6,779 nt of DNA from a virus (IMGVR_UViG_2703718808_000010), one strand, 5' to 3'; positions 3,150 through 6,221 are shown, counted from the first letter of the stretch. Numbers and translations: made by a program. Notes: generated by a model from the letters alone, not told the origin.

Positions 3150-6100
3150 ATGGCAGTAAAGATTTCAGGTGTACTGAAAGACGGCACAGGAAAACCGGTA
3201 CAGAACTGCACAATCCAGCTGAAAGCAAAACGTAACAGCACCACGGTGGTGGTGAACACGCTGGCCTCAGAAAATCCGGATGAAGCCGGGCGTTACAGCA
3301 TGGACGTTGAGTACGGTCAGTACAGCGTTATTCTGTTGGTGGAAGGATTCCCGCCGTCACATGCCGGGACCATCACCGTGTATGAAGATTCCCGACCCGG
3401 TACGCTGAATGATTTTCTCGGTGCCATGACGGAGGATGATGCCCGTCCGGAGGCTCTGCGCCGTTTTGAACTGATGGTGGAAGAGGTGGCGCGTAACGCG
3501 TCCGCGGTGGCACAGAACACGGCAGCCGCGAAGAAGTCAGCCAGTGATGCCGGCACATCTGCCAGTGAGGCGGCAACCCATGCGACTGATGCTGCAGGCT
3601 CAGCGCGTGCAGCCAGCACGTCAGCCGGACAGGCCGCGACGTCGGCTCAGGAGGCGTCTTCCAGCGCAGGAACGGCATCAACAAAGGCCACTGAAGCATC
3701 AAAAAGTGCTGCCGCTGCAGAGTCCTCAAAAAGCGCGGCGGCCACCAGTGCCGGTGCCGCGAAAACGTCAGAAACGAATGCTGCAGCGTCACAAAAATCA
3801 GCAGCCACTTCTGCATCCACTGCGACGACGAAAGCGTCAGAAGCCGCCACTTCAGCCCGGGATGCGGCGGCCTCCAAAGAGGCGGCAAAATCATCAGAAA
3901 CGAACGCCTCCACAAGCGCCAGCAGTGCAGCCTCCTCGGCAACGGCGGCAGGAAATTCCGTGAAGGCGGCAAAAACGTCCGAGACGAATGCTAAGTCTTC
4001 TGAAACGGCAGCGGAACAGAGCGCCTCAGCTGCGGCAGACTCTGAGACAACAGCTGCATCATCGGCCCGTGAGGCGTCCATTAAGGCAGAGGAGGCAGCA
4101 GTCAGTGCCACCGCCGCCGGAAAATCGGCAGAAAGCGCCGCATCATCCGCTTCAACAGCCACAACGAAGGCTGGCGAAGCCACTGAACAGGCCAGCGCAG
4201 CAGCGAGGTCTGCTTCCGCAGCGAAGACATCCGAAACGAACGCGAAAGCGTCGGAAACCAGCGCAGAATCCTCAAAAACGGCTGCCGCATCGTCCGCCAG
4301 TTCGGCGGCGTCATCGGCATCATCGGCGTCTGCTTCAAAAGATGAGGCGACCAGACAGGCGTCAGCAGCGAGGGGCAGCGCCACGACGGCATCCACGAAG
4401 GCGACAGAGGCTGCTGGCAGTGCGGCAGCGGCAGCACAGAGCAAAAGTACGGCAGAATCCGCAGCAACGCGCGCCGAGACAGCAGCAAAACGGGCAGAGG
4501 ATATTGCATCCGCCGTGGCGCTTGAGGATGCGAGCACGACGAAAAAGGGGATAGTACAGCTCAGTAGTGCGACTAACAGCACTTCCGAGTCACTGGCGGC
4601 AACACCAAAAGCCGTTAAGGCCGCGTATGACCTGGCTAACGGGAAATACACCGCACAGGATGCAACGACAGCACAGAAAGGGATAATCCAGCTAAGCAGC
4701 GCGACCAACAGCACGTCTGAAACGCTTGCCGCGACACCAAAGGCAGTAAAAGCAGCCAATGACAATGCTGAGAAACGTCTGCAGAAAGATCAGAACGGTG
4801 CGGATATCCCTGGCAAAGATACCTTTACGAAAAATATTGGTGCCTGCCGTGCCTTCGGTGGGTCAGTAAGCACAACAACAGGAAACTGGACGACTGCACA
4901 GTTTATCGAGTGGCTGGATTCTCAGGGAGCATTTAACCATCCATACTGGATGTGCAAGGGTTCCTGGTCTTATGGCAATAATAAAATCATTACTGATACT
5001 GACTGCGGTAATATTCATCTCGCCGGAGCTGTCATTGAAGTAATGGGGATAAAGTCAGCGATGACGATCCGCATTACCACACCGACCACCTCCACTGGTG
5101 GTGGAACAACTAACGCCCAGTTTACCTATATTAATCACGGAACAGATTATTCACCTGGCTGGCGAAGGGACTATAACTCCAGAAATAAGCCAACGGCATC
5201 AGAGATCGGGGCGTTACCGTCAGGTGGAACAGCAGTATCATCAGTTAATCTGGCTTCAAAAGGTCGGGTAACCGCGCTGACAGACAATACGCAGGGGGCA
5301 GCAGGTCTTGAGTTATACGAGGTGTATAACAACGGATATCCAACAGCGTATGGAAATATCATTCACCTGAAAGGGATGACAGCCGTTGGCGAAGGTGAGT
5401 TACTCATCGGCTGGAGTGGTACAAGCGGTGCTCATGCTCCGGCATTTATTCGTTCACGACGGGATACGACCGACGCAAACTGGTCGCCGTGGGCGCAGCT
5501 TTACACCTCGGCTCATCCTCCTGCAGAGTTTTATCCAGTCGGTGCACCAATCCCGTGGCCATCAGATACCGTTCCGTCTGGCTATGCCCTGATGCAGGGG
5601 CAGACTTTTGACAAATCTGCATACCCGAAACTTGCAGCGGCTTATCCGTCAGGCGTGATCCCTGATATGCGTGGCTGGACGATTAAGGGCAAACCTGCCA
5701 GTGGTCGGGCCGTATTGTCTCAGGAACAGGACGGCATTAAATCGCATACCCACAGCGCCAGCGCATCCAGTACGGATTTGGGGACGAAAACCACATCGTC
5801 GTTTGATTACGGCACTAAATCCACGAATAACACTGGTGCGCATACCCATAGTTTAAGTGGCAGCACGAATGCAGCTGGTAATCACAGCCATAGAGATGGC
5901 CGTCGATTTAACCCCAGTGTTTTTAAAGATACTTATCAATATGGTTATACAAGCTCAGGTCAAAATACCTGGGGTGTACAAGGCTCAGTAGGTATGTCTA
6001 CGGGGTGGTTAGCTAATACCAGTACAGATGGTAATCATAGCCACTCACTGTCCGGCACAGCAGCATCTGCAGGTGCACACGCGCATACTGTCGGTATTGG

Positions 6101-6221
6101 TGCTCATACGCACTCCGTTGCGATTGGTTCACATGGACACACCATCACCGTTAACGCTGCTGGTAACGCGGAAAACACCGTCAAAAACATCGCATTTAAC
6201 TATATTGTGAGGCTTGCATAA
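3150..6221 (+). CDS. stf: Side tail fibre protein Stf (~1023 aa). Start is most likely the ATG at 3150 (MAVKISG...) rather than the in-frame GTG at 3144 used by the ORF track.
   Basis: N-terminus [26 protein letters not shown]... and C-terminus ...[49 protein letters not shown] match my recollection of lambda Stf. A long Ala/Ser/Thr-rich shaft and a conserved [72 protein letters not shown] block are present. The stop TAA overlaps the tfa start (TAATG). Confidence 0.88.
3490..4530 (+). repeat. Ala/Ser/Thr-rich low-complexity shaft region of Stf with degenerate in-frame repeats (motif AAKTSETNA and variants)
   Basis: Protein stretch [18 protein letters not shown]...[13 protein letters not shown]...[13 protein letters not shown]...[13 protein letters not shown]...[13 protein letters not shown]...[13 protein letters not shown]. 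The corresponding nucleotide motif (tcAGAaACGAAcGC and variants) recurs near 3770, 3897, 3980 and 4234. Confidence 0.75.
4536..4758 (+). repeat. Tandem duplicated peptide module inside Stf: [30 protein letters not shown] and [31 protein letters not shown], 44 codons (132 nt) apart
   Basis: Both copies are read directly from the translation. The nucleotide sequences differ at many synonymous positions, for example ctcagtagtgcgactaacagcacttccgag versus ctaagcagcgcgaccaacagcacgtctgaa. Confidence 0.8.
6207..6212 (+). promoter_or_regulatory. Shine-Dalgarno sequence for tfa, lying inside the 3' end of stf
   Basis: GTGAGG lies 8 nt upstream of the ATG at 6221. The stf stop and tfa start overlap as TAATG, consistent with translational coupling. 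Confidence 0.5.

Follow-up and report, generated by a model that had tools for sequence, protein, structure and literature searches.

The tips of tail fibres decide which bacteria a phage attaches to. In Mu, P1 and e14, invertases of the Gin/Cin/Pin type switch the ends of the fibres. The side tail fibre protein (Stf) of Ur-lambda binds OmpC reversibly and makes adsorption 10–30 times faster, and its N-terminal regions form a collar around the tail (PMC12617516). The tip of the T4 long fibre, gp37, has seven irons held by pairs of HxH motifs, according to the account of Bartual 2010 given in PMC11705849. Residues of the T4 head domain set OmpC and LPS specificity, and the head is a mutational hot spot for host range (PMC5221442). 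Adhesin specificity can be swapped by recombination at conserved motifs, as PMC3157838 relates when citing Tetart 1996 and 1998. Lambda itself acquires stf-tfa DNA through homologous recombination with the Qin and Rac prophages (PMC3945230), and functional Stf chimaeras have been engineered with fusions at lambda residues R393 and S528 (PMC11338833).

Here we analysed an stf gene in a viral stretch of 6,779 nucleotides (IMGVR_UViG_2703718808_000010; hereafter the window). Our reading of the whole, to which we give a probability of about 85%, is that the Stf of this Qin-site lambdoid prophage is a chain of exchangeable modules that have been swapped by homologous recombination.

A common prophage allele of stf

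The gene lies between lom and tfa (Table 1). Upstream is J (Pfam Ig_J, Phage_Tail_Tip and Ig_GpJ_C), followed by lom (Ail_Lom), stf and directly thereafter tfa (PHROG 105), which is cut by IS3; an attachment domain (PF08400) stands at the N terminus of the product, as in lambdoid Stf proteins. The whole gene is 100% identical to the ‘phage tail protein’ of Escherichia coli FAM21845 and UC4224, where it belongs to Qin-site prophages, and is 98.2% identical at the nucleotide level to the ‘side tail fiber protein Stf’ of PhiR42_1 and 97.3% identical to that of mEp460_ev081. At least 80% of its length was found in 636 of 5,426 complete E. coli genomes. The gene is a common, previously sequenced allele of the stf of lambda-like E. 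coli prophages, and its sole unusual feature is a 170-nt head cassette nearly identical to that of a virulent T4-like phage. The segments of the fibre that a first-pass annotation of the window had called novel are not so, as the whole gene is found at 98.2% identity in PhiR42_1 and at 100% in E. coli chromosomal prophages. The same annotation had supposed that its mosaic reading would be refuted by even similarity, along the whole length, to one known Stf; in formal terms, such similarity does exist, to PhiR42_1 and to the chromosomal prophages. Genes of this kind are known, and the present one adds a well-resolved case that leaves current understanding unchanged.

Only the first 110 codons of tfa are native. 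The gene is 96.9% identical to the tfa of PhiR42_1 up to nt 6552, where homology ends, and the open reading frame runs on to a stop at 6571; intact relatives encode 188–191 amino acids. Thousands of E. coli records contain a sequence 100% identical to the inserted end, under the name ‘IS3-like element IS3 family transposase’. Because IS3 interrupts tfa, the fibre probably cannot assemble in this strain, and is likely to be non-functional there. An intact fibre of this type would, by homology, be a trimeric side fibre that speeds reversible adsorption.

Table 1 Features of the stf–tfa region of the window
Feature	Coordinates	Strand	Basis or remark
stf, side tail fibre gene	3144..6221	+	1025 aa from GTG 3144; RefSeq start = ATG 3150
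N-terminal tail-attachment domain (aa 3-136)	3150..3551	+	Pfam PF08400 phage_tail_N, E 1.4e-71; 87% nt identity to lambda
Additional Ala/Ser-rich stretch of the shaft (aa 300-406), not in lambda Stf	4041..4361	+	No lambda blastn match
Two Phage_fiber_2 repeats up to the junction motif (NGADIP, nt 4794-4811)	4533..4811	+	Pfam PF03406, 2 stretches, E 6e-37
Module C1 (aa 557-684), first fibre-body domain, P2 gpH / Mu S' / P1 S' type	4812..5195	+	
Module C2 (aa 707-785), second fibre-body domain	5262..5498	+	blastn, P1 Sv' nt 212-459, 71% nt identity
Collar domain (aa 800-847), begins GAPIPWP	5541..5684	+	Pfam PF07484 Collar, E 6.5e-12; 2XGF alignment
Outgoing needle strand, HxH 1-3 (HTH aa 868, HTH aa 900, HSH aa 914)	5745..5891	+	
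Head (putative receptor-binding) cassette with two bounding GGTAAYCAYAGCCA (G-N-H-S-H) motifs	5877..6046	+	
Returning needle strand, HxH 4-7 (aa 965, 979, 988, 997), and conserved C terminus	6036..6218	+	Alignment to T4, lambda and P896; 2XGF; 81-87% nt identity to lambda
tfa, tail fibre assembly chaperone	6221..6552	+	PHROG 105 tail fiber assembly, E 5e-57
IS3 left end inside tfa	6553..6779	+	Transposase orfA from 6618; Pfam HTH_Tnp_1

Segments unmatched in lambda Stf

Compared by blastn with the intact lambda Stf (774 aa), the gene matches at 3150–4040 (87%), 4363–4620 (79%), 4657–4750 (82%), 5541–5819 (87%) and 6036–6221 (81–87%), and has no match in 4041–4362, 4751–5540 and 5820–6035. In blastp searches against lambda Stf, neither the middle region (block C, aa 546–795) nor the head (aa 917–964) was significant (E > 2). 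The mosaic that the first-pass annotation had described in the distal half of the gene is borne out: 4751–5540 and 5820–6035 are unmatched and the flanking blocks are 79–87% identical to lambda. Its two non-lambda segments (4790–5520 and 5890–6040, here segments 1 and 2) and its lambda-like block (5530–5770) were placed correctly to within about 40 nt. Its map was incomplete, as a third non-lambda block, the Ala/Ser-rich shaft at 4041–4361, lay outside it, and the 10-residue motif quoted for the lambda-like block has the letters of lambda; the motif of the window differs.

Both segments had been described as AT-richer, at roughly 40–48% GC. Segment 2 falls within this range (41.1%), whereas segment 1, at 49.8% (47.0% in the first 417 nt and 54% in the last 237 nt), falls just outside it and has an AT content just a little above that of the whole gene (mean GC, 54.6%). 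The contrast between segment 1 and the upstream shaft arises largely because the shaft is Ala-rich (GC2 of 0.63–0.78). At the codon level, the low-GC argument holds for segment 2 only (GC3 of 0.25); the GC3 of segment 1 (0.47) is near the gene-wide value of 0.50, and we therefore rejected its low GC as a sign of foreign origin. The head cassette is the sole true codon-level outlier, with a GC3 of 0.25 (standard error of about 0.07 at 48 codons); no 48-codon window in J, lom or stf has a lower value, and only 0.27% of them are as low.

Modules of the shaft and body

The shaft segment is 93–94% identical in Kati, PhiR29_1, PhiR30_1 and ev099 and has a GC2 of 0.78. Tandem Repeats Finder reported zero arrays in stf; at the DNA level, both the Ala/Ser-rich shaft and the fibre repeats have diverged too far. 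The window, PhiR29_1, Kati and P2 gpH have an identical junction motif, NGADIP, at which the fibre repeats end and downstream of which the sequences diverge; it is the left-hand recombination boundary of block C. Lambda-like sequence returns at lambda residue 533, at the GAPIPWP start of the collar, and this motif is the right boundary.

Within block C, module C1 is similar to residues 178–334 of the Mu tail fibre S/S' (PDB 8JU3; E = 2.7e-75 in a sequence search) and is 77% identical at the nucleotide level to P2 H, 72.5% to Mu Sv' and 76.7% to P1 Sv'. An AF2 model of the middle region, which is moderately confident (mean pLDDT of 62.5; 77–88 in the C1 core and below 50 in the linker at aa ~690–735), had 8JU3 as its only Foldseek match (E = 1.9e-19), over 255 columns that also cover C2. 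The body resembles the solved Mu G(-) fibre both in sequence and in fold. A PDB sequence search with the C2 region (aa 685–799) gave no match at E ≤ 10. C2 is 100% identical in the stfQ remnant of the K-12 Qin prophage. In P1 Sv', the C2-like part lies upstream of the C1-like part, the opposite of the order in this Stf. The alike RRD...W...Y endings of C1 and C2 made a single domain type a candidate, which was dropped because their blastp similarity was not significant. The first-pass annotation had taken the non-lambda segments for receptor-recognition parts, a description that has to be qualified for segment 1, as this is the known P2 gpH / Mu S' / P1 S' fibre-body module (8JU3). C1 and C2 may serve as spacers in the shaft or provide a second site of binding.

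A gp37-type tip

Residues 796–1025 align with the solved tip of T4 gp37 (2XGF; phmmer E = 1e-84) in a collar–needle–head layout with a conserved C terminus, so that the likeness of the HxH motifs to gp37 is more than the resemblance that had been suggested. All seven of the HxH motifs listed in the first-pass annotation are present (aa 868–997): they stand at aa 868, 900, 914, 965, 979, 988 and 997 (nt 5745, 5841, 5883, 6036, 6078, 6105 and 6132) and are in register with those of T4 gp37 (883, 915, 929, 966, 980, 989 and 998), the first three aligning to the first three of T4 with identical spacing (32 and 14). Over the whole series, the spacing is 32, 14, 51, 14, 9 and 9 here versus 32, 14, 37, 14, 9 and 9 in T4, and differs only across the head. 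By homology with T4, the seven HxH motifs of each of three chains would hold seven metal ions in the needle.

A head cassette common to a virulent phage

The head proper comprises aa 917–964 (5892–6035). A cassette bounded by the same GNHSH motifs occurs in gp37 of P896 (OL451225), a virulent T-even phage of the genus Gaprivervirus. The two cassettes are identical at 163 of 170 nt (96%, with 7 mismatches; 94% at the amino-acid level), whereas the flanks, in the collar and needle, are identical at only 378 of 543 nt (67–72%), a sharp step (Fisher P = 9e-15). P896 gp37 has eight HxH motifs and an unrelated N-terminal region of about 815 aa, and its gene stands in the order g36-g37-g38-t-asiA. 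The adjacent gp38 is only 27% identical to Tfa, which indicates that the exchange was confined to the cassette.

Among prophages the cassette is frequent. It occurs in 1,138 of 5,426 complete E. coli genomes (21%), and its prophage copies are near-uniform (1,027 of 1,146 records at ≥99% identity); P896 is the only T-even record in which it was found. An exact 43-nt pattern from the cassette matched at least 120 stretches in IMG/VR, and those listed all lie on prophage-type contigs of ≤76 kb, so that they are uninformative about T-even phages and were reused as a population sample. The codon composition of the cassette suggests a T-even genome as its source: its GC3 is close to that of gp37 in P896 and T4 (0.27), and that of stf is 0.50. 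Other lambdoid head alleles also have a lowered GC3 (0.38–0.39, versus 0.51 in their flanks), and part of the signal may therefore be common to head regions in general.

We favour, with some reserve, the view that the cassette records a recent and precise exchange of a receptor domain between a virulent T-even phage (P896) and lambdoid prophages across 14-nt GNHSH ‘His-box’ repeats, and that after import it spread through about one-fifth of complete E. coli genomes. Transfer in the other direction, in which P896 took its head from a lambdoid prophage during infection and low GC3 is a general head property, would also fit a cassette that is common in prophages and was found in a single T-even record. 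[quoted passage not shown] We nevertheless consider it the less likely direction, as the GC3 of the cassette matches that of T-even gp37 and is well under that of the other lambdoid heads, and near-uniform prophage copies are expected for recent spread after a single import. This alternative alters the direction only; the mechanism is the same.

The T4 mutations T939I, V941E, G943S and A955E (PMC5221442) map to the T4 block equivalent to the head cassette, and homology points to a receptor-binding role for the present allele. If the exchange with P896 is real, it is a counter-example to the report of no recent mosaics between temperate and virulent coliphages (PMC3945230), and P896 and these prophage-derived phages are predicted to share a receptor.

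Probable exchange of modules by recombination

All four combinations of body and head exist among sequenced phages. The window, PhiR42_1 and mEp460 have both segments; PhiR29_1 has block C with another head; Kati and PhiR30_1 have this head with another middle; and lambda and ev099 have neither. Of the 98 IMG/VR loci with this head among the matches listed, about 11 have C1 and C2, about 60 combine the same N terminus with a different middle, and in about 20 the N terminus differs. This independent occurrence of the two segments among lambdoid phages argues that they are exchanged by recombination. Together with the 96% identity of the cassette between flanks of 67–72%, it makes the shuffling between conserved blocks that the first-pass annotation had proposed the best explanation. 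The breakpoints fall on the conserved coding motifs NGADIP, GAPIPWP and GNHSH, not on invertase sites. Relative to lambda, the natural boundaries (aa ~384 and 533) lie within 5–9 residues of the engineered R393 and S528 fusion points.

Stf is built from four modules: a lambda-type tail-attachment domain with an Ala/Ser-rich shaft; fibre repeats; a two-domain body like those of P2 gpH, Mu S' and P1 S', replacing lambda residues ~385–532; and a T4 gp37-type tip whose collar and needle bear a terminal head that would contact the receptor. Homologous recombination probably brought in both non-lambda segments, using the short conserved coding motifs at their ends: NGADIP and GAPIPWP stand on either side of the body and one GNHSH ‘His box’ on each side of the head. 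Swapping the head in this way would alter the receptor and leave the needle scaffold undisturbed, and the present head allele was probably exchanged recently with the virulent T-even lineage.

Site-specific exchange of the modules by DNA invertases of the Gin/Cin/Pin type is an improbable alternative, although several features of the locus recall it. In FAM21845, PhiR42_1, Kati and K-12 Qin, tfa is closely followed by a pinQ-type invertase gene. Block C has homology to the invertible Sv' parts of Mu and P1, De Paepe et al. suggest that invertases drive stf exchange (PMC3945230), and PinQ can act in trans to invert segments of fibre genes (PMC12529663). Pattern searches for crossover sites (gix, cix and pix) at the constant/variable junction found none in stf: AAACCNNGGTTT with ≤2 mismatches has one match in the window, in J, against 2.5 expected by chance, and the e14 repeat TTCTCCCAAACCAA with ≤3 mismatches has zero matches in the window. 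The boundary of the Mu G segment is upstream of the start of homology, and the window is without the site that encodes IQNLGLQE. The GNHSH-encoding repeats that bound the head cassette are direct, not inverted crossover sites. The inverted alternative Sv/U pair occurs in none of the relatives examined; FAM21845, PhiR42_1 and Kati lack an inverted Sv'/U' pair and have tfa directly followed by pin (the window ends inside IS3). The lack of crossover sites at the module boundaries indicates that this Stf is not an invertible-segment fibre.

Divergence of the variable segments in place, by point mutation under receptor-driven diversifying selection and with no foreign modules, is less probable still. 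Heads of the gp37 type are indeed host-range mutational hot spots (PMC5221442), and lambdoid head alleles are mutually distant (25–32% amino-acid identity). The present evidence nevertheless contradicts it: besides the four segment combinations, the identity step to the T-even phage and the GC3 discontinuity at the head, block C is 72–78% identical at the nucleotide level to P2, Mu and P1 with no detectable similarity to the lambda segment that it replaces, and the two differ in length (263 versus 147 aa). An assembly or annotation artefact of the window, for which we found no supporting point, is already refuted by a gene that is colinear and 97–100% identical in many independently closed genomes and isolated phages.

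Implications

This stf illustrates clearly how a natural fibre is put together from interchangeable parts. The natural boundaries lie close to the fusion points at which engineers have made functional chimeric lambda fibres that deliver DNA, and this supports the view that fusions there are generally safe. A cassette common to these prophages and a virulent T4-like phage suggests that virulent and temperate coliphages still exchange receptor-binding domains. Resident prophages could then act as a store of such domains, a point that matters when host-range shifts of therapeutic phages are to be predicted.

Comparison with known systems

The closest relatives, the Qin-site prophages of FAM21845 and UC4224, PhiR42_1 and mEp460_ev081, have the same full-length allele and the same neighbours, with pinQ downstream in relatives. 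The prophages of FAM21845 and UC4224 are intact counterparts of the K-12 stfQ remnant. The IS3 in tfa at nt 6552 belongs to the copy in the window; FAM21845 instead has an intact tfaQ of 188 aa.

Ur-lambda (Stf of 774 aa, with Tfa) has the same gene order, J, lom, stf and tfa, and its N-terminal 299 aa are 87% identical to this Stf at the nucleotide level. It also has the same fibre repeat and the same collar–needle–head tip and C terminus, and the N-terminal part of its tfa is 93% identical to that of the window at the nucleotide level. Unlike Ur-lambda, the window has a tfa cut by IS3, and its Stf has an additional 107-aa Ala/Ser-rich shaft segment, one additional fibre repeat and a 263-aa P2/Mu-type body in place of lambda residues ~385–532. 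There are seven HxH motifs here and eight in lambda, with one SSFDYGTK unit fewer. As the head allele is unrelated to that of lambda, OmpC binding cannot be assumed.

The tip of T4 gp37 (2XGF) is 67% identical in amino acids to this Stf over 230 residues, with the same layout of collar, needle and head and an identical C-terminal 11 residues, a kinship for which the name ‘T4- and lambda-based RBP family’ has been given (PMC9659904). The head inserts are unrelated (15% identity; 48 aa here and 34 aa in T4). Outside the tip, T4 gp37 is unrelated to Stf, and its chaperones are gp38 and gp57.

The body belongs with Mu S' (the G(-) fibre, 8JU3), P1 S' and P2 gpH: C1 is about 80% identical in amino acids to residues 178–334 of 8JU3 and 72–78% identical in nucleotides to Mu, P1 and P2. 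In Mu this body is at the C-terminal end of S', whereas here it is internal and followed by a gp37-type tip. Unlike Mu and P1, this Stf has no invertible segment or crossover site. With P2 gpH it has in common both the upstream fibre repeats and the NGADIP motif.

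Locus and layout of the fibre gene

The window (6,779 nt) is the distal end of a lambdoid tail operon (table). Up to nt 6552 it is 99.7% identical to a prophage of Escherichia coli FAM21845, which is followed by pinQ, ydfK and ydfJ and therefore occupies the Qin prophage site. From about nt 5269 on, stf is 100% identical to the stfQ remnant of K-12 Qin. In FAM21845, the closest complete genome (comparison sequence L012, 1860-5272 and 9671-12329), gpJ is annotated as frameshifted and pinQ is flanked by ISSen4 and IS1B, indicating that Qin-site prophages are decaying with stf still intact.

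Coordinates of features in the window
Feature	Window (nt)	Remarks
J, C-terminal 800 codons	13-2415	Pfam Ig_J, Phage_Tail_Tip, Ig_GpJ_C
lom	2486-3085	Pfam Ail_Lom
stf, 1025 codons	3144-6221	side tail fibre gene
lambda-like block	3150-4040	87% nt
lambda-like block	4363-4620	79% nt
lambda-like block	4657-4750	82% nt
lambda-like block	5541-5819	87% nt
lambda-like block	6036-6221	81-87% nt
block C, module C1	4812-5195	
block C, module C2	5262-5498	
head cassette	5877-6046	
tfa	from 6221	downstream of stf

DNA comparison with the intact lambda Stf (774 aa) returned the five lambda-like blocks and no match at 4041-4362, 4751-5540 and 5820-6035. Neither segment 1 (block C, aa 546-795) nor segment 2 (the head, aa 917-964) has significant protein similarity to lambda Stf (E > 2). 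The layout proposed in the first-pass annotation, of lambda-like blocks, non-lambda segments and HxH motifs, is correct, and all seven HxH motifs are present. Outside the region that it described, 4041-4361 encodes a 107-aa Ala/Ser-rich shaft insert relative to lambda, which is common to the lambdoid phages Kati, PhiR29_1, PhiR30_1 and ev099; fibre length thus varies through the insertion of shaft repeats. Several ORFs of up to 372 aa, on the minus strand and in the alternative plus-strand frames, overlap the Ala/Ser-rich part of stf (3373-4765); they look like by-products of biased codon composition, and nothing independent supports them as genes.

Upstream, 1,331 nt of J before 1972 are 94.5% identical to lambda J. 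For the C-terminal ~148 aa (1972-2415; the receptor-binding domain, Ig_GpJ_C), DNA comparison with lambda J gives no match, and GC falls to 0.46-0.49. Judged from sequence, the central fibre tip seems to be another swapped module, which would imply a receptor other than the LamB of lambda. Similarity of lom to its lambda counterpart is patchy (59 nt at 83%, then 87% from 2958 on), which marks it as a divergent Ail/Lom allele.

Two modules of different kinds

Segment 1 is a widespread fibre-body module. Residues ~541-697 match the Mu fibre structure 8JU3 ('Tail fiber protein S, S''; E = 2.7e-75), and an AF2 model of aa 533-800 (mean pLDDT 62.5, moderate confidence; C1 core 77-88) has this structure as its only significant match (E = 1.9e-19, 255 columns). 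DNA identity is 77% to P2 gpH (4525-5197), 72.5% to Mu Sv' (4782-5185) and 76.7% to P1 Sv' (4780-5185), and a further part (5262-5509) shares 71% identity with another P1 Sv' stretch. In P1 Sv' (L008, 2790-4347), the C2-like stretch (Sv' nt 212-459) precedes the C1-like one (nt 645-1050), the reverse of the order here, so modules have changed places in addition to being exchanged. The segment 1 module is found in 755 protein clusters (Escherichia, Shigella, Photorhabdus, Xenorhabdus, Yersinia, Edwardsiella and others), coupled to many different fibre domains.

Segment 2 is a head allele of a gp37-type tip. The receptor-binding tip of T4 gp37, 2XGF, aligns with residues 796-1025 (E = 1e-84), and the HxH motifs (868, 900, 914, 965, 979, 988 and 997; T4, 883, 915, 929, 966, 980, 989 and 998) share their spacing everywhere but in the insert that separates motifs 3 and 4. 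The suspected likeness of these motifs to those of T4 is therefore direct homology, as long established for the tips of lambda Stf and T4 gp37 (PMC3157838, PMC9659904, PMC12617516). The T4 insert is the head domain, altered by the receptor-specificity mutations T939I, V941E, G943S and A955E (PMC5221442), all of which we located within it. HxH pairs coordinate seven iron ions in T4 gp37, according to a passage in PMC11705849 citing Bartual 2010; those of the window Stf presumably bind metal too. In the tip alignment, lambda Stf (L001:2507-4831) and P896 gp37 (L005:738-3926) have eight HxH motifs each, not seven. In both, the outgoing strand has gained one SSFDYGTK unit relative to the window Stf and the returning strand one GxHxH unit to match, which looks as though paired insertions had lengthened the needle.

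A head cassette shared with a virulent phage

Over 170 nt (5877-6046), gp37 of Escherichia phage P896 matches the window at all but seven positions; P896 is a virulent 170-kb Gaprivervirus (Tevenvirinae), in which the gene has the context g36-g37-g38-holin-asiA. Outside this cassette, identity drops to 67-72% in collar and needle (Fisher p = 9e-15 for the step at the edges). The tract starts and ends on two GGTAAYCAYAGCCA sequences, which encode GNHSH (HxH motifs 3 and 4). GxHxH motifs are reportedly called 'His box' in Tetart 1996 and 1998. P896 gp38 is only 27% identical to the window Tfa, so the chaperone was left out of the exchange. Across 50,697 phage records, this head has a single non-lambdoid carrier, P896, at both DNA and protein level; the cassette occurs in 1,138 of 5,426 E. 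coli genomes.

The segments had been described as AT-richer, which holds for segment 2 (41% GC) and is largely wrong for segment 1 (49.8% versus 54.6% for stf). Because GC3 of segment 1 (0.47) is close to that of the gene (0.50), its contrast comes mostly from the Ala-rich shaft upstream (GC2 up to 0.78). The head cassette has a GC3 of 0.25, the lowest of all 48-codon windows in J, lom and stf and equal to the gene-wide value of P896 and T4 gp37 (0.27); other lambdoid head alleles reach 0.38-0.39 and flanks about 0.51. This pattern fits a cassette that was imported from a T-even genome and then spread among prophages; transfer from a prophage to the T-even phage is a less probable course. The T4 gene 37 head (L011, aa 932-965) reverses the lambdoid pattern, with a GC3 of 0.41 above its needle flanks (0.31); from this sample of only 34 codons, head cassettes could be moving both ways.

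Exchange at module borders

The two segments assort independently. In PhiR29_1, block C (96.8% nt) comes with another head, and Kati and PhiR30_1 combine this head (97-99%) with another middle. Both segments are absent from lambda and ev099 and present in the window, PhiR42_1 and mEp460. Among the IMG/VR matches listed, 98 loci combine this head with enough upstream sequence; about 11 carry C1 and C2, about 60 the same N-terminus with another middle, and about 20 a wholly different N-terminus. Block C begins directly after a 23-residue motif (ending NGADIP) shared without change by the window, PhiR29_1, Kati and P2 gpH, and ends at a 10-residue GAPIPWP motif. It replaces lambda aa ~385-532, and functional Stf chimeras have been engineered by fusion at lambda R393 and S528 (PMC11338833); checked against these positions, the natural borders coincide with fusion-tolerant junctions.

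A pinQ-type invertase could have exchanged the modules, given that pinQ-type genes follow tfa in relatives and that block C has homologues among invertible Sv' segments, but this is improbable: the window has no crossover-like site, the block C junction lacks the Mu site and the head borders are direct coding repeats. Divergence in place is slighter still, contradicted by the independent assortment and identity steps that bear out the proposed recombinational shuffling of a mosaic distal half. An assembly artefact is excluded, because many closed genomes carry the same gene.

Contrary to the first-pass annotation, the segments are not novel: stf is a gene of a known type, and this allele is common. 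Several E. coli chromosomes carry it at 100% identity, PhiR42_1 and mEp460_ev081 carry it in full length at 98.2% and 97.3%, and it is present over at least 80% of its length in 636 of 5,426 complete E. coli genomes. Uniform similarity to one known Stf, which the first-pass annotation had set against shuffling, thus formally exists, but mosaicism relative to lambda and other fibres stands.

Functional state and relation to known systems

Native tfa sequence extends only to nt 6552 (after codon 110), followed to 6779 by the left end of IS3 (100% identical), with orfA and its HTH domain starting at 6618. The tfa ORF stops at 6571, giving 116 codons versus 188-191 in relatives; the FAM21845 prophage has an intact 188-aa tfaQ. 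Because tfa is cut and gp37-type tips need a chaperone for folding (PMC3157838), the side fibre is probably not assembled from the window prophage. Its stf would still be recombination stock for infecting phages (PMC3945230).

The wider interest lies in one point, the near-identical, motif-bounded head cassette that the gene shares with a virulent T-even phage. According to De Paepe et al., coliphages show no recent mosaics between temperate and virulent types, and stf exchange is ancient (PMC3945230); the cassette, a short tract, seems to be an exception of recent date. Its pattern matches the model, outlined in a passage of PMC3157838 that cites Tetart 1996 and 1998, of adhesins switching specificity through recombination at conserved motifs.
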